Assembly (NCBI GenBank): GCA_041576165.1
Contig: JBFGLM010000002.1
Span: forward strand, 64,001-128,000
From: Acidimicrobiia bacterium
GTDB lineage: Bacteria > Actinomycetota > Acidimicrobiia > Spongiisociales > Spongiisociaceae
Reading direction: 5' to 3'
DNA: 64,000 bases
Part shown: positions 23,028 through 40,944 of the stretch, in pieces
How positions within the stretch are numbered: position 1 is the first letter of the stretch
How the letters are laid out: every line of letters starts with the position of its first letter
Position numbers and translations under genes: made by a program
Notes under the pieces: generated by a model
Seen by the model: only the letters and a program-made list of their open reading frames with translations
The model's database searches: none
Told to the model about the DNA's origin: nothing

Positions 23028-23055
23028 CCCGTCTCACCAGCAGCAGGAGGTTGTG

Positions 23056-24887: not shown

Positions 24888-24918
24888 GAGGGTCGGATCG
24901 AGAAGGGATGGGCAAACC

Positions 24919-25164: not shown

Positions 25165-25181
25165 ACAAGAGGAGCTCTGAC

Positions 25182-26432
25182 ATGAGCGGCAGCCGACGAC
25201 GGGTCGTGGTCACCGGCATGGGTGCGGTGACACCCATCGGCCATTCGGTCGACTCGTTTTGGAAGTCGGCGACAGCCGGAGTTTCGGGCGTTGGTCCGAT
25301 CACGCTGTTCGACCCGGCCCGGATCGAGACCAAGATCGCAGCCGAAGTGAAGGGTTTCGACCCAGAGGTCTACATGCCACGGCGCGAGTCGCGGCGGCTC
25401 GACCGGTTTGCCCAACTGTTCATCGCCGCCGCGCAGCAGGCCATGGACGATTCCGGACTGGATTTCACCGATGATGACGAAGCGGGCGCCCGCGCCGGCA
25501 TTGTGCTGGGTGCAGGCATCGGCGGGATGTTGTCCTTCGTCGACCAGCACAACGTACTCAGAGAACGCGGACCCGACAGAGTCAGCCCCTTGGCCATCAC
25601 CATGATCATCCCCAACGAGGGGGCTGGGGTGGCTTCGATCAGATTCAACATGTTGGGCCCGGTGTCGTGTGTCGTGACTGCGTGTGCGGCCTCCGCCAAC
25701 GCTATTGGGGACGCCGCGGAAATGATCAGGCGGGGCACAGCGGATGTCATGCTGGCAGGCGGAGCGGAGGCGACGATCTGCGAATTCGGGGTCGGTTCGT
25801 TCAATCAGAGCAAGGCACTCAGCACCCGCAACGACGACCCCACGGGCGCCTCCCGCCCCTTCGACCGGGACCGCGATGGGTTTGTCATGGGCGAGGGCGC
25901 AGCGGCGCTGGTGCTGGAAGAACGTGAGCAGGCCATGCAACGAAACGCCACGATCCACGCCGAACTGCTGGGCTACGGCATGAGTTCGGACGCCTACCAC
26001 GTCACGCTGCCTCGCCCCGGCGGGGAAGGCGCAGCGCGAGCCATGACCAATGCGCTGGACGATGCTCAACTCAATCCCGCCGACGTTGACTACATAAACG
26101 CGCACGGCACCTCGACGCCGGCCAACGATTCGACCGAGACCGCCGCCATCAAACAGGCCATGGGCGATACCTCCCACACGACCCCGGTGTCGTCGACCAA
26201 ATCGATGACCGGGCACCTGCTCGGCGGCGCCGGAGCGGCGGAGTCGATCATGTGTATCCAGGCCATCAAGGAGGGGGTGCTGCCCCCGACGATCAATCTC
26301 GAGACGCCCGATCCCGAATGCGACCTCGACTACGTGCCGAACGAGGCTCGTGAGGCCCGGGTTGTGAATGCCATGACGAATTCGTTCGGCTTCGGGGGCC
26401 ACAACGTTGCGCTGATCTACGGAGCCGCCTAG
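25182..26432 (+). CDS. fabF: Beta-ketoacyl-ACP synthase II
   Basis: RRVVVTG, TACAAS, NAHGTST, GHLLG, NSFGFGGHN. Confidence 0.96.
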   Translation: MSGSRRRVVVTGMGAVTPIGHSVDSFWKSATAGVSGVGPITLFDPARIETKIAAEVKGFDPEVYMPRRESRRLDRFAQLFIAAAQQAMDDSGLDFTDDDEAGARAGIVLGAGIGGMLSFVDQHNVLRERGPDRVSPLAITMIIPNEGAGVASIRFNMLGPVSCVVTACAASANAIGDAAEMIRRGTADVMLAGGAEATICEFGVGSFNQSKALSTRNDDPTGASRPFDRDRDGFVMGEGAAALVLEEREQAMQRNATIHAELLGYGMSSDAYHVTLPRPGGEGAARAMTNALDDAQLNPADVDYINAHGTSTPANDSTETAAIKQAMGDTSHTTPVSSTKSMTGHLLGGAGAAESIMCIQAIKEGVLPPTINLETPDPECDLDYVPNEAREARVVNAMTNSFGFGGHNVALIYGAA

Positions 26433-26488
26433 GGGCGTCACGTCCGCGTACGGGGTTCGGCGGCGGGGTGCGAAACGCCCACCAGCCT

Positions 26489-26764: not shown

Positions 26765-27553
26765 TCAGTCCTTCTTCTTGGGCCGGCCTTTCGGGTCAAA
26801 CCCGGCCGCCCCGAGTACGTCGGGCGGAACCATCTCCGGCAGGATTGGCACGGGTGAAACCCGCTGGGGCGCGAGCGGGTTGGCGGCGGCCAGTGCTGGT
26901 TTGCTCCATGCCAGCACTGTCACGACTGCGGCGAATACGCCTAGGCCGGCGGCGGCCCACAATTCCAGCCCGATGACGGCCCAAGCTGCCAGCACCGGCC
27001 AGCCCAGCCGTATCGCCCACAGCGCGCGGACGAGCGCCCGCATGTACGCCCAGCCCAGAATCACCCCGGCCGCGGCCAGCACCCACCCTCCGGTGGTCAC
27101 GCCCGCATAGCCGAGAGCGCCCACCACCGCCGGGGAACCGGCCAGCGTTAGTGCCAGCGTGGTGGCAGATGCCGGCACCCGGTCGGGGCGGCTGACAGCC
27201 GCCATGGCCTCCAGCGCCCGACGGCGCCACAGCATCGCAGTGGCGAGCGTCGCGGCGGCTACAGCGATCCACCATCCAGGGGTGATATCCAGCGCGACGG
27301 CGACGCTCAATTCGAACGCGAGCAGGACCGTCACACTGATCGCTACCCATCGGCCCGGCGACAGCAGCGCGGCCACCGCAAGCACGGCGTTGAGTAGAAC
27401 AACGCCGGACGCGAGCAGCGCCGCCGCCGCTTCCGGCCACGGCGTCGGAGCGAAGGTGAGTCGAGCCACCCAGGCAATCGCCGCGATCACCAACACGGCG
27501 GCAGCCCGCACCAGGGCGGTGCTGGCGTGACGTTCGGGGGTCGGGGCGGTCAT
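26765..27553 (-). CDS. Multi-pass membrane hypothetical protein
   Basis: About eight hydrophobic segments; TAGTCT -10 box 8 nt before the ATG. Confidence 0.7.
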   Translation of the reverse strand: MTAPTPERHASTALVRAAAVLVIAAIAWVARLTFAPTPWPEAAAALLASGVVLLNAVLAVAALLSPGRWVAISVTVLLAFELSVAVALDITPGWWIAVAAATLATAMLWRRRALEAMAAVSRPDRVPASATTLALTLAGSPAVVGALGYAGVTTGGWVLAAAGVILGWAYMRALVRALWAIRLGWPVLAAWAVIGLELWAAAGLGVFAAVVTVLAWSKPALAAANPLAPQRVSPVPILPEMVPPDVLGAAGFDPKGRPKKKD

Positions 27554-27623
27554 GTCACAACAGACTAGAACGGGAACAGGGCGCCTCCATCCGGGACGTC
27601 ACTCCCGGCGATAGCATCCCCAC

Positions 27624-28154
27624 ATGTCGACCACACGCGGCTCTTGGCCCGGCGACCCGATCTATTGCTCTCAATGCGGGACTCGGTTGGAAGATCAACC
27701 CATGCACAACGGAGACCTGCGCCCGACATGTCCCCGCTGCGGATACATCGCGTTTCGGAGCCCGTCCGTGGGTGTTGCGGTGCTGGTGCGTGATGCATCG
27801 GGTCGGGTGTTGATGGTGAAGCGGGCCGAGGGTGCCACCCGGCCCGGCCTGTGGTCGATCCCGGCGGGTTACATGGACTACGGCGAAGAGGTCAGAGAGG
27901 CCGCCGCCCGAGAGCTGGAGGAAGAAACCGGGCTCGAGGCCGACGTCGGGGAGGTCGTGTTCGTAGCGTCGAATTTCCACGATCCGGCAAAGCTCACCGT
28001 GGGCATTTGGTTCGAGGGGAACGTGGTTGGAGGCAATCTGGAGGCCGGAGACGATGCGGCAGAGGTGGGATGGTTTTCCCTCGACGAGCTGCCGCCGCTC
28101 GCGTTCGAAACGGATGAGGCGCTGTTCGAACAACTGCGCTCCGGGGTCTGGTGA
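27624..28154 (+). CDS. NUDIX hydrolase with N-terminal zinc ribbon
   Basis: CSQCG/CPRCG and Nudix box GYMDYGEEVREAAARELEEETGL. Confidence 0.92.
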   Translation: MSTTRGSWPGDPIYCSQCGTRLEDQPMHNGDLRPTCPRCGYIAFRSPSVGVAVLVRDASGRVLMVKRAEGATRPGLWSIPAGYMDYGEEVREAAARELEEETGLEADVGEVVFVASNFHDPAKLTVGIWFEGNVVGGNLEAGDDAAEVGWFSLDELPPLAFETDEALFEQLRSGVW

Positions 28155-28241
28155 GGTCAAGCCCGTTAGGTCGCGATCGTCCGCCGAGACGGCGTTGGTT
28201 CACATAGACTCGACTCGGCTTCATCACCGGAGGAGAGGGCC

Positions 28242-28331
28242 GTGAGACCAGGGCACGCCAGCAGATGCACGTCCCGGCGCACCGCCTGGAGCCGGCTGGA
28301 CTCCGGCCATATACCGGACGTGGTGCGATGA
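28242..28331 (+). CDS. Putative 29-aa upstream peptide coupled to the CHAT gene
   Basis: GGAGGAG RBS (28229-28235), GTG 28242, TGA overlapping ATG 28328 (ATGA). Confidence 0.4.
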   Translation: MRPGHASRCTSRRTAWSRLDSGHIPDVVR

Positions 28332-30850
28332 CGGTGCGACCGGCTGAGATCCGGCCACTCGGCGTCCACGAACTCGAGCCGCTCCTCGACCTGGTTGCGG
28401 GCTCCGACCCCGCCGTGCGCCGGAGAGCGCTTGACGTCCTCACCGTCTTTCCTCTGACCGACGCCGCGTGGCGGCACGTGGCGCGAATCGTCCTGGTTGC
28501 GATCGAGCTGGATCCCCATGCAGAAACGCTGGTCGCGGCGGCCCAGGTTCCAGTCCGCGAGGTGCGGGAGCAGTTGCACGCTCAGCTCGGGCTGGCACCA
28601 CCCGAGCAACGCACCGCGCTCGCCCAAGCACTGGTGGCGGCCGGCGACGCCGCGGCCGCGCCGGTGCTGGTGCGCCGGCTCGCAGTGGCGGAGCCCGGCC
28701 GGGCAATGGCCGCCGCCGAGGCGCTTGGGCAGATAGCGCCCGCCGTGCCGACCGGATTGGCGCGGGAGATCTTCGAACAGTCGAAGTCGGACGACGTCCG
28801 CTTGTGGTTGGCAGTCCATCTGGCCAGGGGAGGCGACATCCGACCGCTCCAACAGTTGATCGACGAAGCGGCCGCGGGCAGCTTCCGTCCGGCGCACTAC
28901 CACGGCGATTCGACAGCATGGGCCGCCCGGATAGAGCCGAACCCGCCGATGCCCCGAGTTGTCATCGACCTCACGACCGGCCACGGCGCTGGGGGCAACA
29001 TCGTGGTCGACCTGCTGACGGCGCTGGAGAGTCGGGCGGCACCGGGTGCGGCGAGTGAGCAAGGACACCTGGCCGGGGTCGCGCGCACGGCACTAGACCA
29101 CGCAGCCAATGATCCCACGCAGGCACTTGAGAGCCTCGAGGCGGCGGTCGCGGAGCACGGGATCAAACCTCCCGCCCGGCCCCATTTGGAGAACTCGACC
29201 GTCGACTTGATAGCGCTCGAAGAGGAGGTGTTGGTCGAGACAGCCCCGCTGGATGATCTGGGCCTCGAGAGCCTGGGACCGGTTCGGTCGGCCATGGAGG
29301 CTTCGCCGCCGGATGCCGCGGCGGCATCCGGAACCGACCACGTATATGCCCTCCTCAAATGTCCGGGCACGGTTGCGGCTGAACAGGAATTCGAGCTTGC
29401 GGTCGGCCTGAGTCCCGCTCAGTCCGAAGGTGTCGTCGGCGGGCCGCTGGAGGGTCTCGAGGGCCGAGCCAAACCGTACGTCATCTCCGTCCAGGTGGTA
29501 GCCGACGGGTTTGAGCTGCGGGAAGGCGAGCGCTGGCGCCACGACCTAGCGGTGACCGACGCTCAGCCCTTCCCAACCACGCTATTGCATCTGCGGGCCG
29601 TCCCCACCGACGCGGCGGTGCGGGCGGCCGCCATCTCTGCGACATTCACCGTCGACGGTCAAATGGTTGGCATGGCTGTGCGGCCGGTGGCCATAACGGC
29701 TCCCGGGGTGACCGCCCCGGAGGAGAGCGGACCTCAGGAGGTCGTCGGGGCCGATCTGGCCATCCCTACCGGGCCGGTACCGGCGGATCTCACGGTGGCT
29801 TTCCACCAGGCCCGCGAGCTCCATCTGCTCAGGATGACGATCGAGTCGCCACACGACACGGTGAGAATCCCCGAAATCGACGTCGAGGTGAGCATCGGTG
29901 CCGACCCGGACGAGTACGCCCGTGAACTGGTGCGCGACATGGATGGGCTAGAGGGGAGTGCCGGCTTGCGGCGCGAGCTGGAGGGACGGGGCCGGATGCT
30001 GAGTCAATCGCTGCCCGAGGAGTTCTGGGCAGCACTGCGGGAGGCTGCAGAGGCCGCCGGCGGGCGGCCGTCTGTGCTGCTGGTGTCGGCCGAGGGACGT
30101 ATCCCCTGGGAGTTGGCACTGGTCGATCCGCCACTCGATCCCGACCAGCCGCCGTTTTTGTCGACCCAGGCCGTCATCGGGCGGTGGGTCCTGGCCGGCG
30201 GCGTGCCGCTTCCGCCGCCCCACGAGCGTCCATTCGGTTCGATGGCCGTGATCACCGGCGACTACACCGATCTTCCTCGCTGGGATTCGCTGGCGGCGGC
30301 CGACAATGAACGGGATGAGCTACACGGCCGCTACCAGGCGGAGCCGGTCGACGCCAAGTATGAGCCGGTGATCGAGCTCCTGGAGCGAAAGCCCGCCCCG
30401 ACTGTGTTGCATCTGGCCGTGCACGGCAAGTACACCCAGGGTTCCGGGCGAGAGGGAATTGTTCTCACCGACGGGGAGTGGCTCACGCCCAACGTCGTGA
30501 TGGCCCAGGAAATCGAGGGCGAGCCGCTGGTATTCCTCAACGCTTGCCAGGTCGGTTCGTCGGACGCCGTGCTCAACCAGTACGCCGGGCTGGCTCCGGC
30601 ATTCCTGCGAGCGCGCGCGTGTGGGGTCATTGCGCCGATGTGGAGCGTCAAGGACGAGATTGCTCGCAACATGGCGCTCGGCTTCTACACGGCGACGCTT
30701 GAAGAAGGAGTTTCGGTGGGCGAAGCCATCCGGCGCGCACGATCGGCATTTGCTGCGGGCGGCGAGCCGACTTCTGCGACATTCATGGCGTATCAGTACT
30801 TCGGCCATCCGGAACTCCGGCTGGCCCCGTCGGACCCAGGAGGTGGATGA
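28328..30850 (+). CDS. CHAT-domain (caspase-like) cysteine protease with HEAT-like N-terminus
   Basis: IPWELA, LHLAVHG (His), VFLNACQVG (Cys), GVIAPMWSVKD, AYQYFGHP; N-terminal alpha-helical repeats (DPAVRRRALDVL, AAAEALGQI). Alternative start 28265. Confidence 0.88.
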   Translation: MTVRPAEIRPLGVHELEPLLDLVAGSDPAVRRRALDVLTVFPLTDAAWRHVARIVLVAIELDPHAETLVAAAQVPVREVREQLHAQLGLAPPEQRTALAQALVAAGDAAAAPVLVRRLAVAEPGRAMAAAEALGQIAPAVPTGLAREIFEQSKSDDVRLWLAVHLARGGDIRPLQQLIDEAAAGSFRPAHYHGDSTAWAARIEPNPPMPRVVIDLTTGHGAGGNIVVDLLTALESRAAPGAASEQGHLAGVARTALDHAANDPTQALESLEAAVAEHGIKPPARPHLENSTVDLIALEEEVLVETAPLDDLGLESLGPVRSAMEASPPDAAAASGTDHVYALLKCPGTVAAEQEFELAVGLSPAQSEGVVGGPLEGLEGRAKPYVISVQVVADGFELREGERWRHDLAVTDAQPFPTTLLHLRAVPTDAAVRAAAISATFTVDGQMVGMAVRPVAITAPGVTAPEESGPQEVVGADLAIPTGPVPADLTVAFHQARELHLLRMTIESPHDTVRIPEIDVEVSIGADPDEYARELVRDMDGLEGSAGLRRELEGRGRMLSQSLPEEFWAALREAAEAAGGRPSVLLVSAEGRIPWELALVDPPLDPDQPPFLSTQAVIGRWVLAGGVPLPPPHERPFGSMAVITGDYTDLPRWDSLAAADNERDELHGRYQAEPVDAKYEPVIELLERKPAPTVLHLAVHGKYTQGSGREGIVLTDGEWLTPNVVMAQEIEGEPLVFLNACQVGSSDAVLNQYAGLAPAFLRARACGVIAPMWSVKDEIARNMALGFYTATLEEGVSVGEAIRRARSAFAAGGEPTSATFMAYQYFGHPELRLAPSDPGGG

Positions 30851-32337
30851 TGGACTACGACCTCGATCCCTACGGCGATCCGGTCGCCGTCGATGACGTC
30901 GTGCTGCGTACCCCCGGCCTGGCCGGACGCGTACGGACGATCACCGCCTCCGGGCAGGCCATGCGTTCGGAGGCCCAATGGACGTCGGCTCTGTCCGAGG
31001 CGCTGGCCAACGAGAACGTCGAGCCCCAGGTCGTCGTTGAGATATCCGACACAGAGGAGACCGACGTTCCGGCGGGCGTAGGCACCCGTTCGACCGCAAT
31101 CGGGGAGCCGGGAATCGAACTCGAGGTGCCCGGGCCCGGCACCGGGTGGGGTCAGCTGATCCTGTACACCGACGAATCGGGAGTTGCCACCTGGGAGTTC
31201 GCAGAGAACGGAGACAGCCAGGAGGCGGCTACGCGCGGTGCAAATACTCAGACGTACGTGCTCCGGCGTTCCGTGCCGCCGCCGGCAGCCCCTGAAGCCG
31301 GCGCTAGTCGCGGGGTGCTCTCGTCCATCGGTAGGAAGGTCTTGGGCGTCTTGGCTTTCAAGCTGATTGATCCAGTAATAGGCGCGATCGGAGAGGCCTT
31401 TGCCGAGCGGTGGGAGGCGAAGAAGCGGCCATATCGCATCCGGTCGTTTGCTCCCGATTCGTACCGAGAGTCCGACGGCCCGCTGATCGATTCGACCGGA
31501 TGGAACCGTCTTGGTGAGGGCAAGTCACTGCTGTTCGTGCACGGCACGTTCTCCCGTGCCCATACGGGCTTCAGCGGGCTTTCACCCCACGTGATGAAGG
31601 ACCTGCACCGCATCTACGAGGGTCGGATCTTCGCGTTCGACCACTTCACCCTTTCCCACACTCCCCAGCAGAACATCGAATGGTTGCTCGGCCAGCTACC
31701 CGATGGCGTCAGCCTCGACCTGGACATCGTCTGCCATTCCCGGGGCGGTTTGGTGAGCCGGACACTGGCCGAGAAACAGGGTGAACTGTCGACCGGAGGC
31801 CGCACCGTCAACGTCGACAAACTGGTATTCGTCGCCACTCCCAACTCCGGGACGGCGCTGGTCGACACCGAGCACATGTCTCAGTTCATCGATACGTATA
31901 CAAACTTGTTCAACTTCGTGCCCGACAACGGGGTCACCGAAGTCCTGGAGGGCGTCATCACCGTGGCGAAACACATCGCCGTAGGCGCAGTCAAAGGTCT
32001 GACCGGTCTCCAATCCATGCATCCGGGGGGTGACTTCCTTCGGTGGCTCAACGTGCCGACCGGCATCGGAAGCCGCTACTACGCCCTCGCCGGCAATTTC
32101 GAGCCGGCGGACCGGGGGTGGGCGAACTGGGCCAAGAACCACCTCATGGACGCAATATTCCAAGGTAACAATGATCTTGTCGTACCGACCAAGGGTGTCT
32201 TTGCCGCCAACGGATCCACCCAGTTCCCGGTGGACCAGCGACTGGAGTTCGGTGCCGACGCCGGTATCAACCACAGCACCTTCTTCGCAGACCAGATCGT
32301 CCAGGACAGACTGCTGTCGTGGCTCGGGTCGGGCTAG
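30847..32337 (+). CDS. Alpha/beta-hydrolase (lipase-like) with N-terminal pro-region
   Basis: LFVHGTFS, IVCHSRGGLV (nucleophile elbow), VATPNSGT, NDLVVP, INHSTFF; ATGA-coupled to the CHAT gene. Confidence 0.85.
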   Translation: MMDYDLDPYGDPVAVDDVVLRTPGLAGRVRTITASGQAMRSEAQWTSALSEALANENVEPQVVVEISDTEETDVPAGVGTRSTAIGEPGIELEVPGPGTGWGQLILYTDESGVATWEFAENGDSQEAATRGANTQTYVLRRSVPPPAAPEAGASRGVLSSIGRKVLGVLAFKLIDPVIGAIGEAFAERWEAKKRPYRIRSFAPDSYRESDGPLIDSTGWNRLGEGKSLLFVHGTFSRAHTGFSGLSPHVMKDLHRIYEGRIFAFDHFTLSHTPQQNIEWLLGQLPDGVSLDLDIVCHSRGGLVSRTLAEKQGELSTGGRTVNVDKLVFVATPNSGTALVDTEHMSQFIDTYTNLFNFVPDNGVTEVLEGVITVAKHIAVGAVKGLTGLQSMHPGGDFLRWLNVPTGIGSRYYALAGNFEPADRGWANWAKNHLMDAIFQGNNDLVVPTKGVFAANGSTQFPVDQRLEFGADAGINHSTFFADQIVQDRLLSWLGSG

Positions 32338-32432
32338 CGCGGCCTGGTTTTCAACCGTCCGGCATCGGACGGTCGAGATGCGTAGGGTCGGGACGGGACT
32401 GGGGGTAGAAGTCGCACGTGGGACAAGGTCGG

Positions 32433-35400
32433 ATGGTGGCGAGCGGCGATCCACAAACATATGAACGCCCGGTCGCAAGGCCGGTGGCCGGCCGTCGTAC
32501 GTTCGCCCTGTGGCTCATCGTCGCGGCTGCCCTTCTCGTCATAGCGGCAACGCTGGCGGCACTGCCGATAGCTCATGGACTGGAGGAACACTGCACCGGC
32601 GATATCGTCGTCATGATCGATGCGCCGCTGCGGGCCGGTCCGCTCGATTGGTCGTTCAGCACCGAGGTTGTCGACCTCTCGGGTGACCCGATCCCCCCCG
32701 GCACCTACGACGTCAGCCTGGTGACTTCCGACCCAGGGCACGCGCAGCCGGGGGACGTGAGCCAGCCGGCCGAAATCTGGTACGTCGAGCTGCTCGATGC
32801 CGATACGAGTCCGATCTACACCTCCGAGTGGACGACCGACCTGGCCGATACCGCTACCGAGCGGATTGATGCCGTCCAGCCCCAGGCGGTTCTCGAGTCC
32901 GCCGCCATCACGCTGGTCGCGCGCCACGCCATCGAGGAGATCGAGCGCGACGGGAACGGCAACATCGTGGCCAGCGGCATCAACTCGCTCACCGCGGTGT
33001 GCGCCATCTTCAACTCGGTCTCCATGCCTGTTCTGCCCCTGGAGGTTGGCATCGCAGCCGAGGTGGATCCCGGATCAGTGACGGTCGGCGCCGCCTCCCC
33101 CGCGACCTTCCAGCTTTCGATCAGCAATATCGGCCAGGCTCCAGCCGGCGAGCTGGTGATCGATCAGCCCTTGTGCGGAGACGTCACGGGTCAAACGCTC
33201 GCTCCTGGCGGCGTGGTGACGGTGTCATGCCAGGTCGACGTGTCTCACGGCGGGGTGCTCGATTTGAGAGTCACGGGCGTGAGCGACGGCCGGGCGGTCG
33301 CCGGCGAGACGATGCTGGCGGTGCTCGTCTCAGAGCTCATGATCGAGCCCGAGGCACCGCTGGTTCAGGGGACCCAGGGCGGGTCAGCCACCATTGAGGG
33401 GGTCATCCGCGACAGTGGAACAGTGGCGCTGGCCGAGGTCACGCCCGCGGTCACCGGGCTGCCCGCCGGGGTCACTGCCTCCTGCGGCGCGGCCCCCGAC
33501 CTGGCCCCAGATCAAGAATCCAGCTTCACCTGTTCGCTCGCCGGTGTCGCCGCTGGTGGATCGGCGTTCGACGTTGCCGTCGGTGTGACCGCGGTGAGCG
33601 CCAACCCGGCCCGGGTGGCGGCGGCCGATACCGCCACTGTGACCGTCGTGCCGTGGGAGTCGCAGCCGGCGCTCACGATCGAGATCACACCGGAGACGAT
33701 CACGGTGACCGAGGGGGATACGGTGCAGTACACCGTCGTCGTGGGAGCCGCCGGTATCAATGTGCCTATCGACGTGATGGTTGATACTCCGGCCGACCAA
33801 TGCAGCCGCCAGATTCCGGCCGGCGCCGCCTTCCCCGATGTCCTGACGTGTGAGGTCGTGGCGACCAACACAACCACGATCGATGCGACGGCAACGGCCG
33901 ACACCGGAGGCGCCCAGCCACTCACGGCCACCGATGTATCGACCTTGATCGTCGAGGGCCTGGTCGACATCGAGCTGGACGTCTCGCTAGACGAGCAAAG
34001 GATCGACGTGGGAGACACGGTCGAAATGAGGGTGCTGGTGCGGAACCTCGGCCCGGCTAAGTCCGGGAAGGTGACGGTTGAGATTGATCTGCCCTCAACG
34101 ATCGGCACCGTGAGGTGCTCGGGCCCGCCCGCCGACACATTTGTTTGCTCACGCTGGGTTATCGAAGATGGTCTCGAGAAGGATGACCAGGCGGTTGCCT
34201 CCTACATCCTGCGCGGCGCGGCAGCCGGCTCCGACCCGATAGTTGCCGAAGTCGTTGAAATCGAGGGTGCCCGCGATACCGACTCGGAGCCAGACGACCA
34301 GACCGGCGACGACCACGACTCTGAGGCCCTGATCGTCGAGCGGCCGCCGAATCGCATCATCCCTCGGGGCACCATCAGCGGCTGTGTCTTTCTCGACGAC
34401 GACGAAGACGGCGAACTCGACACCGGCGAAGAGCTGCTCGACGGTGTCCGGGTGTTTTCGGGCTCCAGCAGCGACTTGACCGCCGGCTCGGGGTATTCGT
34501 TCCGGATAGAGGCCGGCACCTACCGGGTGGCGGTCGATGTGGACACCCTGCCGGGTCTCTTCGACTTCTCGACTCCCGCGACCCGCCTTGTCACGGTCCG
34601 GGCCAACCGAACAACGTCCGACATCTGCTTCGGCGTCGTGCCGACCGGCGTCTACACCTTCACCCTTACCGCCGATCCGGCAGAGATCCAGATCGATTCC
34701 ACGGCGGCCGTGAGCGTGCTCGTCGACGGCCCGGACCGGCCCGACGTCCCGGTCATCTTCGATCCGCTGCCCGGCGGCTTGGAGCTGGTCGGTCCCCGCC
34801 GGGTCGACGTGACTGTGGGCGAGCCCTTCGACGTCGAGATCAAAGGGGAACAAAACGGTCGATATTTGATATCAGCGCGAGCCCAAACCGACGGCGTCAC
34901 GGGACCAGTGGCAACGACTGCGCTGATTGTCATGCTTCCCCCCTCCAAGATAGGGGGCACGGTATTCGTGGATTCCGACGGGGACGGCGTGCTGGACCCC
35001 GACGAGGAGCCGCCGGCAGACGCATCGACCCTGCGGGTCCTGGCGATCAAACGCGACAAGATCCAGCCGGCCGCCGCTCAATCTGCGGGCTCGGGGCTCG
35101 GGTACTACGGCTCGGGGGTCCTTCAGTCCCGGATATCCCTGTTCCAGGGCGCGTCGCTGCTCGGCTTCGTCTTCTTCGTGGATGAAAACGGCCGCTACGT
35201 TACAGAGACGCTCACGCCGGGCAAGTACCAGCTGGAGCTGATCGATTCGGCCGACCGGCGCATCGAGTCGCTGCCCGAGGGCCGCCAGATCGCCCTGCCC
35301 CGCGACGCCGGCAATCACGACCTGGACTTTGCAGTGACCGCCCAGCTCGACGCCGACCGGATCAGCGGCCGGGTGTGGATCGACGAGAACGGTAACGGCG

Positions 35401-37769
35401 AGATAGATGACGGCGAACGGGGATGGGGCGGTGCCATGGTCACGATCTCCGACCTCGATGGGAACACCGAACCACAGATCGTGACGACCGAGCTGGTCGC
35501 GGGCGATGAGGCCCGATATGACGCGGTCGTCGAGCCGGGCCGCTATCGGGTCAGCATCGCCGATCAGGGGGGCGCCGAGCTGGGCTTCTCGACCGCGCAT
35601 CCGATCGACGTCGAGGTGCCCGGTGGCATCCCGTTCGACCAGGTGGACTTCGGCGTCACCGATGGGCCATTCGGCGTCATCAGTGGCGGCGTCTGGTGCG
35701 ATGTCAATGACAACGGAACGCTTGATCAAAACGAGACCAGCTTCCCCGGCGTTGTGACCTTGGGCGGGCCGGTCGGGCAGCGCACGGCCACTGTCCAGGC
35801 GGACGGGCACTACGAGTTCTCCGGGTTGAGCAAGGGCGATTACACGGTGGCCTACACCCAGCAGCGTTCCGAAGCCGACCCGATCGAAAAAAACGAGACG
35901 GTCACGCTCGGGCTGGCAGAGGTGAGAAACGACGTTGATCTCAAGCCCTGTCCCAAAGGTTCCATCGGCGGAATCATCTACGTCGACGAAAACAACAGCG
36001 GCTCCTTTGAAGAAGGAGCCGACCGCCCGGCGCGTGGGATCAGCGTCCAGTTGTGGCATTCAGGTGCTCCGATCTCGGAGCGAGCGGCCGTTGAGGTCGA
36101 GGATGTCCGAGAGGGGGAAGCCGCCCGATACCTGTTCCAGCATCTCGCCCCGGGCCTCTACAGGGTCGTCGTCATCGGTGCTGTTGATGACGCGACACTC
36201 GCCATCGGCCGGCGCACGCCCGTGACGATCGAGCCCGGTAGCACCGAGCGCGTCGATCTCGACGTGCGTTTCACCACACAGTCGGGCATCCCGCTCTGGG
36301 TGTGGGTCCTCCTCGGCGGCGCGGCGGCCTTGGCGATCCTGTACTACCTGACGCGGCACGTGCCGGTGCCCATGCCTGTCCCCATCCCAGGGTCGCCGCC
36401 TACCGACCGGGGGCCACCGACCCCGACCCCGTATCCGGGTGTCCGGCCCTTCGGACCGGCCGAGGCGCCGGTATTCGCCGGACGAGAACGCGAGATCAGG
36501 GCGCTCGAAGCTCTGACGTATCCCAACAGGATCCTGCTGCTGTACGGCCCGGCCGGTGCCGGCAAGACCTCGCTGCTGCAAGCTGGGTACATCCCTGCGC
36601 TCGACCCAACGGAATTCGAGGTCCTGCCCACTGCCCGCTTCCAGCTTGGACCGCCGCGCCCGCCCACGGATGGCGCCAACGTCTTCTCATATGCGGTGCT
36701 CTCTTACCTGTCTCAGTCCGCCGTGCCGGCTGCCGCCACCCTGGCGGATTACCTAGATCAGCGCCCGCCGATTGTTGGGGAATTCGACGTCGAGGTGGCG
36801 CGGGTGATCGTGATCGACGAGTTCCAGGAGATGTTCCGGCTCTATCCGGAGTACTGGCACCAGCGTCAATCCTTCTTCGATCAGATCGGCGAGGCGCTGG
36901 AATCCGATCCGCTGGTCCGGTTCGTGCTGTGCATCGACGAGCATGAGATGGGGGAGCTGGAGCCATTCATCGAGCAGTTCGGGCCACACGTCGTCTCGGA
37001 ATACCGAATCGAGCCGCTCCGGCCGGAGCAAGCGCTGGCGGCGATCTCCCATCCTGCGGAGCTGGACGGACGGCGTATGTCCGAGGCGGCGGCCGCGGCG
37101 TTGGTGGACGAGGCTCGCACCGTGCGTGCCGAGCATGACGGGCACCGGATCGAGGTTGTGTACGAGCATGCCGACCCGATGGCACTCCAGCTCAGCGCCG
37201 AAGCTACCTGGCGCCACGCTGACGGTGACGAGATTGGGCCCGACGACATCGTCGGGTGGGAGGATGGCGATGCTGCGATCGAGGCGTTCTACGAATCGAT
37301 CGTGGCCGCGGTGGCTCCCCAGGCCGGTGAAGCCGCGTTGAGAGAGTGGTGTGAGCGGGTTCTGATCGACCCGACCGGCAACCGGGCGGTGCTGGTCCCG
37401 GGTCGCGGCGGCGCCCGCCAGATGCCGGCCGACGTCATCGAATCGTTGACCATGCACACCTTGCTGGTCGGGTCGGTACGCGGAGACGTCCGCTGGCTGG
37501 AGCTGGCGCATGATCGTCTCGTGCCTGCCATCGAGCTCAGCAACCGGAAATGGAGGGAACAAACGCTGATCGAGGCATCGGCCGGCCTGCTCTCGGCCGC
37601 GGCCCGGATCTGGGAACGGCATGGCCGGGATGAAGACGGCCTCCTCGTGGACGGTGCGTTGACCGACGCCCGTCTGTGGGCGGCGGCGTATCCCACGCGG
37701 GTGGGTCCGCTCGAGCGTGAATACCTGGAGGCCAGCATCGCCGCCAGCGAGCGACCCGTCGGCAGCTGA
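32433..37769 (+). CDS. Giant adhesin (Ig-like/DUF11/SdrD-B repeats) - TM - nSTAND1-type NTPase fusion
   Basis: N-terminal signal/TM; five IxGxhhhDxxxxG SdrD-B starts (34374, 34950, 35361, 35678, 35963); TM ~36288-36355; PYPGVRPF...FAGRERE, GPAGAGKTS, VIDEFQEMF, ELAHDRLV. Start uncertain (32418-32433). Confidence 0.85.
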   Translation: MVASGDPQTYERPVARPVAGRRTFALWLIVAAALLVIAATLAALPIAHGLEEHCTGDIVVMIDAPLRAGPLDWSFSTEVVDLSGDPIPPGTYDVSLVTSDPGHAQPGDVSQPAEIWYVELLDADTSPIYTSEWTTDLADTATERIDAVQPQAVLESAAITLVARHAIEEIERDGNGNIVASGINSLTAVCAIFNSVSMPVLPLEVGIAAEVDPGSVTVGAASPATFQLSISNIGQAPAGELVIDQPLCGDVTGQTLAPGGVVTVSCQVDVSHGGVLDLRVTGVSDGRAVAGETMLAVLVSELMIEPEAPLVQGTQGGSATIEGVIRDSGTVALAEVTPAVTGLPAGVTASCGAAPDLAPDQESSFTCSLAGVAAGGSAFDVAVGVTAVSANPARVAAADTATVTVVPWESQPALTIEITPETITVTEGDTVQYTVVVGAAGINVPIDVMVDTPADQCSRQIPAGAAFPDVLTCEVVATNTTTIDATATADTGGAQPLTATDVSTLIVEGLVDIELDVSLDEQRIDVGDTVEMRVLVRNLGPAKSGKVTVEIDLPSTIGTVRCSGPPADTFVCSRWVIEDGLEKDDQAVASYILRGAAAGSDPIVAEVVEIEGARDTDSEPDDQTGDDHDSEALIVERPPNRIIPRGTISGCVFLDDDEDGELDTGEELLDGVRVFSGSSSDLTAGSGYSFRIEAGTYRVAVDVDTLPGLFDFSTPATRLVTVRANRTTSDICFGVVPTGVYTFTLTADPAEIQIDSTAAVSVLVDGPDRPDVPVIFDPLPGGLELVGPRRVDVTVGEPFDVEIKGEQNGRYLISARAQTDGVTGPVATTALIVMLPPSKIGGTVFVDSDGDGVLDPDEEPPADASTLRVLAIKRDKIQPAAAQSAGSGLGYYGSGVLQSRISLFQGASLLGFVFFVDENGRYVTETLTPGKYQLELIDSADRRIESLPEGRQIALPRDAGNHDLDFAVTAQLDADRISGRVWIDENGNGEIDDGERGWGGAMVTISDLDGNTEPQIVTTELVAGDEARYDAVVEPGRYRVSIADQGGAELGFSTAHPIDVEVPGGIPFDQVDFGVTDGPFGVISGGVWCDVNDNGTLDQNETSFPGVVTLGGPVGQRTATVQADGHYEFSGLSKGDYTVAYTQQRSEADPIEKNETVTLGLAEVRNDVDLKPCPKGSIGGIIYVDENNSGSFEEGADRPARGISVQLWHSGAPISERAAVEVEDVREGEAARYLFQHLAPGLYRVVVIGAVDDATLAIGRRTPVTIEPGSTERVDLDVRFTTQSGIPLWVWVLLGGAAALAILYYLTRHVPVPMPVPIPGSPPTDRGPPTPTPYPGVRPFGPAEAPVFAGREREIRALEALTYPNRILLLYGPAGAGKTSLLQAGYIPALDPTEFEVLPTARFQLGPPRPPTDGANVFSYAVLSYLSQSAVPAAATLADYLDQRPPIVGEFDVEVARVIVIDEFQEMFRLYPEYWHQRQSFFDQIGEALESDPLVRFVLCIDEHEMGELEPFIEQFGPHVVSEYRIEPLRPEQALAAISHPAELDGRRMSEAAAAALVDEARTVRAEHDGHRIEVVYEHADPMALQLSAEATWRHADGDEIGPDDIVGWEDGDAAIEAFYESIVAAVAPQAGEAALREWCERVLIDPTGNRAVLVPGRGGARQMPADVIESLTMHTLLVGSVRGDVRWLELAHDRLVPAIELSNRKWREQTLIEASAGLLSAAARIWERHGRDEDGLLVDGALTDARLWAAAYPTRVGPLEREYLEASIAASERPVGS

Positions 37770-37785
37770 GCTCGATCGCTGCTGG

Positions 37786-39210
37786 CTAACTGATGGCGGC
37801 GGTCTCTCCCCACCGCCGGCGCAGCTCGTCGGTGAACTCCTCGGGCTTGCCGGGATACAGCGATAGGTTCCACTGCTGGTTGAAGTAGCCCTTGACGTAG
37901 TCGATCATGCCCGGGTCGGCGTCCGGGCTGACCTGCACCGCCACATTGAGGAGCTGGTTGCTGACTCCGTGCCGGAAGCGGGGCAGGATGGCGTGAAGGA
38001 GCGCCCGGAATCCCAGGTCGTCCCAGTCGAAACCCAGGAACAGCAAGGCCCCTTTGCCAATCGCGTGCAGGATCGCCTGGGGCAACGTCGTCTGATCGCT
38101 GGTGACCCCTACTGCGAACGACAGGTAGTCGTCCTCGGACAGGATCATCGACTCGGCGTGGTGGTCGCCGCTGGTTCCGTATAGGTGATAGACGACCGGT
38201 TCGGTGGCTTTCAACTCGAACGAGGGGTCGTGGAGCCTGGAGGATTGTTCCGGCATGATCGCCTCGGACGGCCTATAGCGGTCGGACATCGGTATCCGCG
38301 GGTTGGGCTGCTCCTGCAGCGCCGCTTCGAGATACGCGTCCTGGTTGGTTGTCAGGTATACGGCAAGCGGCAGATCCGCCAGAATCCGGTACGGCGCAGT
38401 CTTGTCCGCCGCGTCGGAGATCTTCAGCTTCTCCAGCCGCTCGGACAAGGCATAGTTGGCCATCAGCTGGTCCTGAGAGTTCTTCACCTTCACGAACTGA
38501 ACCACCCGGGCAAACTCGCGCGCCCACCGGCGGGCCAACCTCTCCTGCGCGTCGGGCTCCTCGCTCGCCGCCAACTCGATCAGGTCGGCCGGTCGGTGAT
38601 AGCCGAACTTGTCCGCCCAGTCGGCGGCCAGGTCTGCCTTGATTCTGGTTGCGTCGGGTGACAAGCCGCCACCGAGGAAGGGCACCAACTTGCCGCGCTT
38701 GATATTGGCGATCAGCGCATCCCAGTCCTGGTCGGAGAAGCCGGTATCGGTGCTGCGCCACTCGATTGACCGGCTCTTGAACGTCTCCTCGATCTCTTCG
38801 ATCAGGGGCTCGAGGCTGGCCGCCTTCTCCTCGGTCAATTGGAAGGCTGGTTTCATCGCCACCTCGAGCAGCGCTTCCGGAAGCTCGTCCTGCGTGGGGC
38901 GCTCGACATCTGGCGCCATCAGCAACAGGATCCGGGCCGGGCCTCGTAGTGCCTGATGTAGCAGGTCGGCGATCGGATCGCCGTCTGTGTGCAGGGCTAC
39001 CGACCCGGTCTCGTCTTCGGCCAGCCATTGATCCCCGACGAGAACGACCAGCACCTCGGTATCGCTGAGCCGGTCGGCGCTGTCGGTATCCGGCGACGGC
39101 TGATCCAGAGCCACGTTGTGATCGCCGAAGTGCCGCGCCAGTAGCTCCCGGGTCGTTGAAGCAAGACCGGCCGTATCGGACCTGCGGTAACTGATCAGGA
39201 TCGTGGCCAC
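37786..39210 (-). CDS. TIR-like domain fused to a SIR2-like (SIR2_2) domain
   Basis: GGAGG then GTG 39210; ILISYRRSD TIR start; LVPFLGGG, YLTTNQD, VYHLYG, LSEDDY, LLFLGF. Confidence 0.85.
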   Translation of the reverse strand: MATILISYRRSDTAGLASTTRELLARHFGDHNVALDQPSPDTDSADRLSDTEVLVVLVGDQWLAEDETGSVALHTDGDPIADLLHQALRGPARILLLMAPDVERPTQDELPEALLEVAMKPAFQLTEEKAASLEPLIEEIEETFKSRSIEWRSTDTGFSDQDWDALIANIKRGKLVPFLGGGLSPDATRIKADLAADWADKFGYHRPADLIELAASEEPDAQERLARRWAREFARVVQFVKVKNSQDQLMANYALSERLEKLKISDAADKTAPYRILADLPLAVYLTTNQDAYLEAALQEQPNPRIPMSDRYRPSEAIMPEQSSRLHDPSFELKATEPVVYHLYGTSGDHHAESMILSEDDYLSFAVGVTSDQTTLPQAILHAIGKGALLFLGFDWDDLGFRALLHAILPRFRHGVSNQLLNVAVQVSPDADPGMIDYVKGYFNQQWNLSLYPGKPEEFTDELRRRWGETAAIS

Positions 39211-39288
39211 ATCGTCCTCCCGTTCGGTTTCCACCCTACGCATTCACCCGTGTCCGTGGCCGGCACCGCTTGGGTAGGGTGCTAGTCC

Positions 39289-40944
39289 ATGGATCTCGCG
39301 CAACTGCTGACCGAACTCGGTCAAGCGCTCGGCGCCCATGACGAGACGGCGGTGGCAGACATCGTTGACCTGGTCGTTGCGCACATCCTCGGGTCGGATG
39401 AGCCGTTCTCGCCCGAGCTGGCCACCGAGATGCTGGGCACGCTTTTCCACAAGCGCAGTTTCCAGTCGGTAGCACGGCTGGGCGATGCCCTGTTGCAGGT
39501 CGGCGTAGACGAGCCGAAGGTGCGGGGTTACTACGCAGGCGCTTTGGCTGAGGAAGGCTTCTTGACGCCGGCCGAATCGATGGCTGAGAGTCTCAAGTCC
39601 AATTCGGTGGAAGATCCAGCCGAGCGGGCGTGGGCGCAGGAGTTCCTGGGCGGGGTCCGATCCCGGCTGTACGTTCAGGCGACGGGCATGCGGGGGGCGC
39701 GCCGTGAGCGCTTCCTCGACGGAGCGCTATCGGAGTATTGGGGCGCGTACGACGTCGCCCCGGGCGACCACCCCTCTCACGGCATCCAGGTCGTCGGGTT
39801 GCTCAGGCGGGCGGAGGCCGACGGTGTTGACCCGGGCCATTACGGAGACACGACCGAGATCGCCCGCAGGGTGGCAGAGACCGTGCGTGATTCACTCCGA
39901 CCGTCGGACCTGGTCACAGCCGTCAAGGCGGCCGTCACGCTGGGCGACGGCCACGCCGCGCTGGAAGCCGCCACCCGGCTGATCAGCCATGAGCAGGCCG
40001 AGGCGTACGAGCTGAGTGCGCTGCTGTGGGATCTCACGAACATCTGGGGCGTCGACGAAGCACGCGACGACAACAAGCAGCTGATCGGGTTGATCAAGAC
40101 CGGGCTGATGCAGCGGCCCGACTTCAGTCGAGTCGAGCTGACGCCGTCGGAGGCGAGAGCCGCCGCCGAGGGCCTCGACCGGGTCGGAGCCGGCGCGGTA
40201 CCGAGCGGAGCGGCGGATATTCAGCAGGACATCCCGGGCCTGGAACGGATCCTCGGCAAGGAAGGCGTGCGGACCCGGCGGTGGATCCTCAACATGCTCG
40301 ATCGGAGCCGGGCCGTCGCTCGAATAGAGGACCACAGCGAGAAAGCGATGGGCACCGGCTTCCTAGTGCCCGGTCAGGCTCTGCACGATTCGCTCGGTGA
40401 GCAGATGGTGCTCGTCACCAACAACCACGTCATTGCGTCCCGGCCCGAACGCAACCAACTGAAGCCTCTCGAAGCCGTCGCCCGCTTCCAGGCGCTTGAG
40501 GAAGAGGGCGAACGGGCCGGCGTCGACGTAGGCGACCCGATCTTCGAGTCGCCCGTGGAGAAGCTAGACGTGTCCGTTCTCGAGTGCGGGGCCCCCGAGG
40601 GAATGACGCCTTACCGGATCGCCGAGGATCTGCCGGATCACGACGCCATCGATGAAACGGCCAAGGTCTACGTCATCGGGCACCCGGGGGGCCGTACGCA
40701 GTCATTCTCGCTCGACGACAATCTACTGATCGACTACGACGACGAGGTGCTTCACTACCGGTCGCCGACCGAACCGGGGAGTTCAGGGAGTCCGCTGTTC
40801 GATCAGCAGTGGAACCTGATCGGCCTGCATAGTCGCGGCAACGAGAACTTGCCCAAGCTCAGAGGCCAGCCGGGCCGGCGTGAAGCCAACATGGGTTTTC
40901 GCATCACTGCAGTGAGAGCGGCGATGGAAATCTCGCTGCGGTAG
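39289..40944 (+). CDS. Trypsin-like serine protease with N-terminal helical (TPR-like) domain
   Basis: GTGFLV, TNNHVI (His), KLDVSVL (Asp), VIGHPGG, TEPGSSGSP (Ser), LIGLH; no signal peptide. Confidence 0.88.
   Translation: MDLAQLLTELGQALGAHDETAVADIVDLVVAHILGSDEPFSPELATEMLGTLFHKRSFQSVARLGDALLQVGVDEPKVRGYYAGALAEEGFLTPAESMAESLKSNSVEDPAERAWAQEFLGGVRSRLYVQATGMRGARRERFLDGALSEYWGAYDVAPGDHPSHGIQVVGLLRRAEADGVDPGHYGDTTEIARRVAETVRDSLRPSDLVTAVKAAVTLGDGHAALEAATRLISHEQAEAYELSALLWDLTNIWGVDEARDDNKQLIGLIKTGLMQRPDFSRVELTPSEARAAAEGLDRVGAGAVPSGAADIQQDIPGLERILGKEGVRTRRWILNMLDRSRAVARIEDHSEKAMGTGFLVPGQALHDSLGEQMVLVTNNHVIASRPERNQLKPLEAVARFQALEEEGERAGVDVGDPIFESPVEKLDVSVLECGAPEGMTPYRIAEDLPDHDAIDETAKVYVIGHPGGRTQSFSLDDNLLIDYDDEVLHYRSPTEPGSSGSPLFDQQWNLIGLHSRGNENLPKLRGQPGRREANMGFRITAVRAAMEISLR

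Follow-up and report, generated by a model that had tools for sequence, protein, structure and literature searches.

The window analysed here, a 64,000-nt stretch of a contig from an Acidimicrobiia genome, encodes a protein that reads, in order, as a hydrophobic anchor, a beta-sandwich ectodomain, a transmembrane (TM) helix, a proline-rich linker and a full-length nSTAND1 domain at the very end of the chain (Table 1). The nSTAND1 family goes back to Kaur et al. (2021; PMC8195603), and membrane-spanning nSTAND1 receptors are known. Judging from sequence, what is new is the reversed order of the parts together with an adhesin-type ectodomain. We favour, at a probability of about 0.6, a reading in which the protein is an outside-in, clustering-activated STAND that licenses CHAT, DUF7379, SIR2 and TPR-S-trypsin effectors; the coupling, the ligand and the clustering are what we infer in it.

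Table 1. Genes of the island and parts of the receptor (positions in the window).
Feature	Position	Strand	Evidence or remark
CHAT (caspase-like) protease, 861 aa	28265..30850	+	Pfam CHAT E 1.3e-14, aa 696-832
DUF7379 alpha/beta-hydrolase-like protein, 496 aa	30847..32337	+	Pfam E 1.2e-56; Palm_thioest/PGAP1 weak
Receptor start region	32418..32576	+	Short basic N-terminus, predicted cytoplasmic (invariant RR), and first hydrophobic segment, aa ~31-53
Receptor ectodomain, ~1240 aa	32577..36290	+	Pfam, acidic loops, SdrD match, AF2 head model
TM helix, aa ~1292-1312, and Pro-rich linker (predicted cytoplasmic) up to PYPGVRPF	36291..36428	+	
nSTAND1 NTPase (NOD module), predicted cytoplasmic, and short helical tail	36429..37769	+	Pfam, AF2, VIA-align
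SIR2_2-domain protein, 485 aa	37786..39243	-	Pfam SIR2_2 E 1.1e-13; convergent with receptor gene
TPR-S-like region and Trypsin_2 peptidase, 551 aa	39289..40944	+	Pfam Trypsin_2 E 1.6e-18

An nSTAND1 module behind an adhesin-type ectodomain

The receptor gene is a single open frame that begins at a GTG (32418; 1783 aa) or at the ATG at 32433 used in the database copy P0002 (1778 aa), and it holds no tandem DNA repeats of note. Membership of its C-terminal part in nSTAND1, as proposed in the initial annotation, is borne out by a match to the whole Pfam profile (PF20703; aa 1338-1740, profile 1-379 of 379, E 2.3e-28, 100.4 bits vs a cut-off of 27.1). This is the weakest of the 11 nSTAND1 matches in the same genome with a profile coverage of half or more, eight full-length paralogues scoring 370-400 bits. 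All motifs named initially can be read in the translation, namely PYPGVRPF (1338), Walker A GPAGAGKTS, Walker B VIVIDEFQE and ELAHDRL, along with GREREIRAL, and the Walker A G/K/S and Walker B D show no variation in alignments A1 and A2. EREYLEAS (1766-1773) lies ten residues ahead of the stop, with no repeats after the NTPase, and the homologues P0003, P0004 and P0243 share this terminus. The earlier statement that this motif precedes the sensor holds for only 43 of 226 conventional relatives, in which a strict pattern finds it before the TM.

The AF2 model of the NTPase (pLDDT 88.9, pTM 0.80) has a NOD fold, with P-loop, helical domain and winged helix as in Apaf-1 and MalT. In VIA-align it matched MalT (8bob_C; Z 13.8, 291 residues aligned, rmsd 6.7), Apaf-1 (3shf; Z 13.7, 282 aligned, rmsd 6.5), NLRC4 (Z 12.4) and Avs4 (Z 12.1) over model residues 14-384, covering NBD-HD-WHD, and ORC/Cdc6 and the archaeal ATPase 2qen scored as high (Z 14-15). 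By sequence, no relative of the NTPase was found in the PDB. Within the 2023 PADLOC library, the receptor reached only PDC-S68 (E 0.0074 over 34 residues, at the P-loop), and no model match was found for the receptor, CHAT or DUF7379.

The ectodomain opens with a head of two beta-sandwiches, followed by CARDB/DUF7507-like Ig modules, a DUF11 module and an SdrD_B/CarboxypepD_reg-type array. Pfam placed DUF11 at aa 517-627 (E 1.6e-7), in agreement with the module read initially, matched CARDB weakly, and called SdrD_B (E 1.1e-28) in three stretches above threshold. The five SdrD-B repeats first proposed are matched in number by acidic D.D.DG-type loops, which a pattern script located at aa 660, 852, 989, 1095 and 1190, but not by these Pfam calls. 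The proposed cysteine pairing finds support in 14 ectodomain cysteines (vs two in the cytoplasmic part) that fall into seven near-neighbour pairs (59/195, 253/271, 356/372, 462/478, 567/577, 656/737, 1094/1178). The ectodomain also matched SdrD (10ps_A; E 7.5e-10); its Atlas matches scored below 0.9 and serve as leads only. The AF2 model of the head (pLDDT 78.3) resembled only generic beta-sandwiches (TM-scores 0.2-0.3), and this comparison gave no hint of a ligand. Matches to NCBIfam Sdr models were limited to the B-repeat part, far below the whole-protein cut-offs for SdrC/SdrD (NF012181, 35.5 bits vs 2500; NF000535, 23.7 vs 1700).

Topology was judged from hydropathy and charge. The two hydrophobic segments have Kyte-Doolittle values of 2.69 (the N-terminal one) and 2.05, and are flanked by basic residues, RR before the first and TRH after the second. 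The first is 23 residues long, which is long for a cleaved signal peptide, and may act as a signal anchor or as a signal peptide. A type I-like layout, as initially suggested, is supported because the NTPase needs cytoplasmic NTP, one TM lies between the two parts, and the charges fit the positive-inside rule; the adhesin-like part would thus face outward and the NTPase inward. The host is a monoderm actinobacterium with six WhiB genes, and no Omp85 was found in its genome (96.5% complete) while all seven diderm controls were positive.

Staphylococcal Sdr/MSCRAMM adhesins (SdrD, UafA) likewise use SdrD_B-type, Ca-binding beta-sandwich repeats as a stalk. Unlike them, the window receptor has no A-domain, SD repeats or LPXTG anchor; it is TM-anchored and continues into a cytoplasmic NTPase.

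Reversed order among the relatives

We drew relatives as two lists, one of 119 and one of the 149 best non-self hits from 1.84 billion representatives; hits totalled 21021 at E<=1e-3. In these lists the usual order was an N-terminal NTPase, a TM and a long C-terminus (101/119 and 113/149). The NTPase begins at residue ~10 in nearly all nearest relatives, without a fused enzyme, and an N-terminal extension of more than 60 aa in the conventional order occurred in only 3/119 and 2/149; of 226 relatives, 186 had PY.G..PF inside their first 80 aa. The window receptor departs from this clade architecture, its NTPase being C-terminal with no repeats behind it. The initial annotation had taken effector-NTPase-(TM)-repeats as the norm, and so the missing enzyme as a loss, and had treated a receptor-like STAND as peculiar. 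Neither idea survives these counts, since nearly all near relatives lack a fused enzyme and typically carry an outside repeat array behind a TM. Nor does the adhesin replace an effector, the candidate effectors being separate neighbouring genes. As to rarity, membrane receptor-like STANDs are common, whereas the reversed order appeared in only 2/119 and 3/149 of the best hits, plus one fragment.

Conventional transmembrane nSTAND1 proteins resemble the window NTPase in sequence (30-38% identity), in the PY.G..PF start, the Walker motifs and ELxHDRL and, in part of them, the terminal E..YL..S motif. They likewise place one TM between a cytoplasmic NOD and an outside sensor and carry no fused effector. 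By contrast, the order in the window receptor is sensor-TM-NTPase, which attaches the NOD to the membrane through its N-terminus; its sensor consists of an Ig-like/DUF11/SdrD_B array and not of solenoid or propeller repeats, and there is a second hydrophobic segment, at the N-terminus.

In a quick tree of 71 domains, one branch (SH-aLRT 100) separated the reversed-order proteins from all others, and they form one clade, probably of single origin. Overall identity of the receptor is 42-46%, and P0003, P0004 and P0243 keep its order, TM and linker. Between members, identity is 56-61% in the NTPase and 29-49% in the ectodomain, where whole modules have been inserted or deleted, as against 76-77% for DUF7379; P0243 bears cadherin-like/Big_9 modules. 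A further candidate, the gene at locus L012, was rejected as a fourth independent locus, being the same gene as P0004 (1057 of 1058 residues identical). With the window receptor as query, 40 kin genomes (G028 included) yielded no full-length orthologue, nor did the genome contig collection, whose best match was a Streptomyces record with 36% identity over 86 aa. The three full-length homologues could belong to rather closely related organisms, so that shared gene order may partly be inherited.

Genes flanking the receptor

The receptor belongs to an island of five genes and 12.7 kb. Immediately upstream (80-95 nt), on the same strand, lie the CHAT and DUF7379 genes, which overlap by 4 nt. In the CHAT protein, a helical N-terminal region specific to the clade is followed by a conserved beta-rich domain in the middle and by the C-terminal CHAT domain. 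Candidates for its catalytic dyad are the His in LHLAVHG and the Cys in FLNACQ, taken from the invariant H699/G700 and N738-A739-C740 of alignment A3 (the window protein, P0388, P0389 and two CHAT proteins from other DUF7379 loci). In the DUF7379 protein, two arginine-glycine pairs, R129-G130 and R154-G155 (P0122 numbering), are conserved, with R in 116/116 homologues and G in 96%.

Passages of two published studies offer a precedent for this pair. Kaur et al. (2020; PMC7159879) report a caspase domain as always accompanied by a neighbouring alpha/beta-hydrolase gene, and Evans et al. [quoted passage not shown] As in these modules, LcCaspase/LcHydrolase (PMC12642450) among them, the window has a protease gene directly before an alpha/beta-hydrolase-like gene, two conserved R-G sites in the N-terminal half of the hydrolase and an associated STAND sensor. 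By this analogy the DUF7379 protein is a putative protease-activated zymogen, with R129-G130 and R154-G155 as the presumed cleavage sites. Differences from the systems described in that source include the spacing of the sites (25 residues vs 44 in LcHydrolase) and size (496 aa vs LcHydrolase fragments summing to ~33 kDa); moreover, the sensor of the published caspase modules is fused to the protease, while the window STAND is a separate membrane protein.

Seven of 401 genomes carry DUF7379, a count that includes G041, whose locus L025 was left out of the analysis, as was locus L038 of G028. A CHAT homologue was adjacent or fused in 6/6 other DUF7379 loci examined, and homologues of the window's nSTAND1, SIR2 and trypsin proteins were absent nearby in the same 6/6 (tblastn, E 1e-5). 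The pair can therefore work alone, and the CHAT protein, with its 860 or so residues, may have a sensor of its own. The top two DUF7379 homologues (77% and 76% identical) lie on contigs of 16776 and 12392 bp, the sizes of the contigs of P0004 and P0003, an equality which suggests that DUF7379 stands beside both receptors. Among CHAT homologues of 473-1507 aa, none lay on a contig of either size. P0388, a CHAT homologue of 925 aa and 60% identity, lies on a contig of 6804 bp, a size that by arithmetic alone would about fit CHAT, DUF7379 and the first part of a P0004-type receptor.

Downstream, the SIR2 protein matched ThsA-type PADLOC models (E 2.9e-9). The TPR-S-trypsin gene is divergent from it across a 45-nt spacer; its TPR-S match, weak in the window gene (E 0.026), improves to E 8.8e-5 in the orthologue at L012, the P0004 locus. 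At that locus both genes recur in the same positions (SIR2, 42% identity; TPR-S-trypsin, 49%). Among the 40 kin genomes, the closest conventional relative (nSTAND1-TM-WD40, in G034) comes 36 nt after a CHAT-SIR2_2 fusion gene, the SIR2 half of which matches residues 162-477 of the window SIR2 protein (27%, E 2e-20); like the window receptor, it thus has a CHAT/SIR2 neighbour. Linkage of the receptor to neighbouring effector genes is partly conserved. BLASTP among the five island proteins detected no common adaptor domain, and a promoter/terminator scan between the genes gave nothing usable.

Proposed mechanism, alternatives and significance

In the reading that we favour, the receptor would be a rearranged offshoot of the nSTAND1 clade in which the NTPase comes first, then a TM and then an outside WD40/TPR/propeller array. 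Its Ca-binding-type beta-sandwich modules would project out through the cell wall over ~1240 aa, with one helix crossing the membrane. In the common form the C-terminal end of the NTPase is the one attached to the membrane, whereas in the window receptor it would be the N-terminal end. In neither form can the sensor touch the NTPase across the membrane, which makes ligand-driven clustering of the ectodomains the most likely route to activation. Clustering would raise the local NTPase concentration and let the NOD oligomerise, with no fixed conformational relay. The NOD oligomer would then license the separately encoded effectors of the island: the CHAT protease would cut the DUF7379 zymogen at its two R-G sites, and the SIR2 and TPR-S-trypsin proteins would possibly be licensed too. 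The outcome would be growth arrest or cell death, as abortive defence or another conflict response. Surface contact, the input first suggested, is one possible input among several.

The NOD fold predicted here is shared with the soluble antiviral STANDs (Avs1-5, bNACHT) and with Apaf-1, NLRC4 and MalT (Z 12-14), and ligand-induced oligomerisation would be expected as in those proteins. In them, sensor and NOD occupy one compartment, with autoinhibition by contact, and effectors are usually fused; in the window receptor the membrane lies between sensor and NOD, and no PADLOC Avs model matched. The bivalve receptors described in PMC8195603 share the type I layout, with a Cys-rich ectodomain, a TM, an intracellular DED/TRADD-N and then a STAND NTPase. 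These eukaryotic proteins differ in having unrelated ectodomains, an NTPase of another clade and adaptor domains that separate it from the TM; the likeness is by analogy only.

An artefact, in which misassembly or a frameshift fused an adhesin gene to a truncated STAND gene, could be suspected in a fragmented genome of 161 contigs with 7.5% contamination. We give it practically no weight: the frame is open throughout, three colinear proteins from other assemblies (P0003, P0004, P0243) keep the order, TM, linker and end, and contigs of runs X1 and X2 (study P1) and X5 (study P2) span the TM junction (36285-36354) without differences, which answers the initial concern about a chimera there. The protein might also be a surface adhesin or envelope protein with its NTPase working inside-out, in display, clustering or turnover for aggregation or biofilm and not in conflict. 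Its SdrD_B, DUF11 and CARDB modules are those of Gram-positive adhesins, other giant SdrD_B-type proteins occur in the same genome, and the modules of P0243 would fit this role as well. We nevertheless consider it very improbable. The contexts given for nSTAND1 in passages of PMC8195603 are only of the conflict type, the gene sits amid protease, SIR2 and hydrolase effectors, the score against the SdrD model speaks against an MSCRAMM, and TM anchoring makes a sortase signal unnecessary.

More weight belongs to coincidence within a defence island, which we regard as unlikely yet worth taking seriously. The receptor, CHAT-DUF7379, SIR2 and TPR-S-trypsin would then be separate systems, and the STAND would act via another partner or alone, for instance by perturbing the membrane or depleting NTP once clustered. 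The occurrence of CHAT-DUF7379 alone in the six other loci fits this, as do the divergent transcription units of the SIR2 and trypsin genes and the lack of a common adaptor; most conventional relatives, too, have no fused effector. Set against this, SIR2 and trypsin recur beside P0004 although the receptors themselves are only 42-46% identical overall, DUF7379 recurs beside P0003 and P0004 as judged from equal contig sizes, and the CHAT-SIR2 fusion upstream of the G034 relative is an independent arrangement. To our knowledge, a STAND hub lacking any effector is without precedent.

STAND/NLR proteins are usually regarded as sensors inside the cell. Those most closely related to the window receptor, already hundreds within the best hits out of 21021 at E<=1e-3, place the sensor outside the membrane. 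Beyond a mention, we found in the literature searched no study of such membrane-spanning nSTAND1 proteins; the supplementary architecture tables of PMC7159879, PMC8195603 and PMC12642450 may list the reversed order. The window receptor offers a natural experiment within this clade: the same NTPase is tethered by its opposite end and joined to a quite different ectodomain, which narrows the range of possible signalling mechanisms. In a further, rather doubtful extension of the favoured reading, an external multivalent agent (an adsorbing phage particle, the surface of a neighbour or a secreted attacker) would cluster the wall-spanning array, and the STAND hub would fire CHAT and the hydrolase zymogen, plus SIR2 and trypsin, before or without entry of foreign DNA. 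The permutation would then be direct evidence of proximity signalling, not of conformational relay, across the whole membrane-STAND clade. The compact five-gene island is open to testing and, if its CHAT-hydrolase coupling is true, would link an extracellular input to the protease-licensed death effectors recently shown biochemically.

Architecture and integrity of the receptor gene

The receptor frame encodes 1783 aa from a GTG codon; its database copy (P0002) begins at the ATG at 32433, which gives 1778 aa. Every motif listed in the initial annotation was found in this frame, and the protein does end just past the NTPase, with the stop ten residues beyond EREYLEAS. A hydropathy scan gave two hydrophobic segments, aa ~31-53 and ~1292-1312, with basic residues on the N-side of the first and the C-side of the second, upholding the proposed topology of extracellular adhesin, membrane helix (TM) and cytoplasmic NTPase. 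The ectodomain between these segments has a net charge of -125 and 14 cysteines paired with near neighbours, while only two cysteines lie C-terminal to the second helix; the proposed Cys-paired ectodomain and DUF11 module were borne out. The claim of five SdrD_B repeats stood in part: five acidic D.D.DG loops were found (aa 660, 852, 989, 1095, 1190), but Pfam reports three SdrD_B stretches. An invariant RR precedes the first segment (GRRTFAL; window 32490-32510, aa 25-31); it is loosely Tat-like and may be just positive-inside charge.

Features of the receptor, its island and the flanking genes
Feature	Position	Strand	Remarks
fab operon	21633-26432		flanks island
fabF	25182-26432	+	
ORF opposite fabF	24222-26441	-	probably spurious
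Two open frames	26765-28160	-	262 and 201 aa; between fab operon and CHAT gene; no Pfam match
Effector island	28265-40944		
CHAT protease		+	first island gene
DUF7379 hydrolase		+	second island gene; 4-nt overlap with CHAT
Receptor	32418-37769	+	third island gene; single open frame; 80-95 nt past DUF7379
SdrD_B	receptor ectodomain		Pfam, E 1.1e-28
DUF11	aa 517-627		Pfam, E 1.6e-7
nSTAND1 NTPase, complete	aa 1338-1740		Pfam, profile 1-379 of 379, E 2.3e-28
CARDB	receptor		Pfam, weak match
SIR2_2	37786-39243	-	fourth island gene
TPR-S-like-Trypsin_2		+	fifth island gene
MoxR-DUF58-TgpA transglutaminase operon	43967-48522	-	downstream; MoxR is AAA_3 with weak bpMoxR match

The receptor is a real feature. 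A chimeric join at the TM junction was ruled out and the artefact reading rejected, since three homologues share the domain order and contigs from two metagenomic studies bridge the junction. Over their full length, P0003 (1695 aa) and P0004 (1873 aa) are colinear with the receptor, including the N-terminal RR and anchor, head domain, TM, Pro-rich linker and C-terminal end. P0243 (1272 aa) carries cadherin-like/Big_9, DUF11, SdrD_B and CarboxypepD_reg modules, a TM, and nSTAND1 with a terminal EREYIDAS. Contigs of four metagenome runs were aligned: X1, X2, X5 and X6. Those from X1 and X2, of study P1, and from X5, of study P2, span 36285-36354 with zero differences; runs X1-X4 may represent the source sample of the window. 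Within the SdrD_B array, X1 and X6 contigs differ by 13 letters at a back-step joint (35344-35360); either strain variation or a bubble in the assembly graph could account for this.

Domain order across the NTPase family

Using receptor aa 1290-1783 as the family query, a word-index search gave 148 matches (120 listed, 119 of them classed), and 1.84 billion representatives searched exhaustively yielded 21021 at E<=1e-3, of which the best 150 were examined and 149 classed. An N-terminal NTPase followed by a TM and a long C-terminal part was the order in 101/119 of the word-index matches listed and in 113/149 among the best 150 of 21021. The permuted order (ectodomain-TM-NTPase) occurred in 2/119 and 3/149 (P0003, P0004 and P0243) over the same respective sets. 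Remaining relatives had no strong TM call, were short fragments, or had a longer N-terminus (3/119 of the matches listed; 2/149 among the best 150). Precomputed Pfam assignments for the word-index matches listed place WD40, TPR, propeller, FGE or PPC in the conventional C-terminal parts, and PY.G..PF lies inside the first 80 residues in 186/226 conventional relatives (median start, residue 10). From this census and motif position, an extracytoplasmic sensor is the rule and a fused N-terminal enzyme the exception, so the initial annotation was wrong about what is unusual here. The receptor is a permuted member, not the sole receptor-like STAND, and represents a rare variant of a membrane-STAND clade that is itself common but uncharacterised.

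A quick ML tree built from 71 NTPase domains placed all six permuted rows (window, P0003, P0004, L012, P0242, P0243) on one side of a single branch (SH-aLRT 100). They amount to five distinct sequences, one a fragment, because locus L012 holds the same gene as P0004; the fragment, P0242 (448 aa, 55% identity), comes from another permuted member. No orthologue was found in a pattern scan of one genome per GTDB species, or with this query in 40 kin genomes (including the unpublished G028).

The window's own genome (G000) carries ten further nSTAND1 matches (contigs C22, C15, C37, C20, C46, C14, C29, C105 and C11; loci L001-L010), eight of them scoring 370-400 bits and lying in open frames of 1313-2090 aa; the C15 copy contains a TAG in frame. 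With 105 bits, the window's copy diverges far more than any of these. SdrD_B-like arrays with 26-29% identity to the receptor stalk occur in a giant open frame (C17:81925-88782, 2827 aa on C17) and at C26:355-2295, possibly an ectodomain module source or a kindred surface protein.

For the NTPase domain, a model built from 24 sequences (pLDDT 88.9, pTM 0.80) matches MalT (Z 13.8), Apaf-1 (13.7), NLRC4 (12.4) and Avs4 (12.1) over residues 14-384. Its match to ORC/Cdc6 and to archaeal ATPase_2 proteins is as good (Z 14-15). The predicted fold is in the expected STAND/Orc-Cdc6 neighbourhood; a sequence search found no solved structure of a relative. The model of the first 265 ectodomain residues shows two beta-sandwiches (pLDDT 78.3, 3 sequences only), for which no specific structural match was found.

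The surrounding effector island

The receptor is embedded in an effector island, partly conserved, flanked on one side by the fab operon and on the other by His-phosphatase/DinB genes. The ORF opposite fabF is probably spurious because of that position. At L012, SIR2 (42%) and TPR-S-trypsin (49%) orthologues keep the window's positions and orientations. The contigs that carry the top two DUF7379 homologues (77% and 76% identity) measure 16776 and 12392 bp, the same sizes as the P0004 and P0003 contigs; among matches of 473-1507 aa, no CHAT homologue turned up on a contig of either size. DUF7379 occurs in 7/401 genomes of the phylum sample (including the unpublished G041). All six other DUF7379 loci read have an adjacent or fused CHAT homologue, and homologues of the window's NTPase, SIR2 and trypsin are absent from all six. 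This absence, the incidence of DUF7379 and the failure to find CHAT on contigs of those two sizes argue against fixed coupling. The closest conventional relative among kin genomes (G034; nSTAND1-TM-WD40, TM at aa 468) lies 36 nt after a CHAT-SIR2_2 fusion gene, whose SIR2 half matches the window's SIR2 protein (27%, E 2e-20). The N-terminus of the latter (aa 1-160, ILISYRRSD...) is kept in the L012 orthologue and has no Pfam match; it may resemble a TIR-like start.

CHAT has its His and Cys, and DUF7379 the HSRGG serine. N-terminal to the hydrolase core, two Arg-Gly dipeptides are conserved among homologues of ~490 aa (Arg 116/116, Gly 96%). Two R|G sites of an alpha/beta-hydrolase have been shown to be cut by a caspase-like protease, yielding fragments that kill E. 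coli (Evans et al., 2025, PMC12642450), and caspase/hydrolase pairing has been described as obligatory (Kaur et al., 2020, PMC7159879). In its paired R-G sites and protease partner, DUF7379 resembles the former hydrolase and is a putative zymogen with two candidate cut sites. Right behind the second site, aa 156-190 (about 31312-31416) form a hydrophobic or amphipathic stretch, GVLSSIGRKVLGVLAFKLIDPVIGAIG, which any cut there would leave as the new N-terminus of the product.

Other protease-hydrolase arrangements were also seen. The window's own genome has another such module (L035, C97 about 5447-9136), where a second DUF7379 match lies in a 1545-aa open frame and is followed some 2.4 kb downstream by a CHAT homologue. 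L033 (G160, 5423-11437) fuses DUF7379, an LCAT-like hydrolase, CHAT and TPR-S in one 2004-aa protein, and L030 (G035, 9293-14931) holds a DUF7362-DUF7379-DUF7363-CHAT fusion adjoining a CHAT-CBM9 protein.

Host envelope and proposed signalling

The host genome, 5.1 Mb in 161 contigs, is 96.5% complete with 7.5% contamination and contains six WhiB genes, the WhiB control being positive in Corynebacterium only. Omp85 was not found in this 96.5% complete genome, while seven of seven diderm controls were positive. We read the host as a monoderm actinobacterium; the receptor ectodomain would therefore cross the cell wall. The metagenome runs in which the stretch occurs carry marine, soil, mangrove and sediment labels.

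The name nSTAND1 appears in Kaur et al. (2021, PMC8195603), and 'Transmembrane STAND ATPases' are mentioned once by Evans et al. (2025, PMC12642450). The literature searched (main texts) yielded no study of an nSTAND1 or transmembrane/membrane STAND protein. Among permuted members, identity is 29-49% in the ectodomain, with module indels, and 56-61% in the NTPase; for DUF7379, the window's protein and its top two homologues share 76-77%. The faster ectodomain divergence would fit a sensor under changing selection, but would be expected equally under relaxed constraint. Activation by clustering is favoured because the membrane separates the sensor from the STAND NTPase module (NOD), and because opposite ends tether the NOD in the two forms. 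Ligand would induce clustering of the ectodomains, the NODs would then oligomerise, and the oligomer would license effectors encoded in trans, with CHAT acting on DUF7379 as the most likely output route of the receptor.
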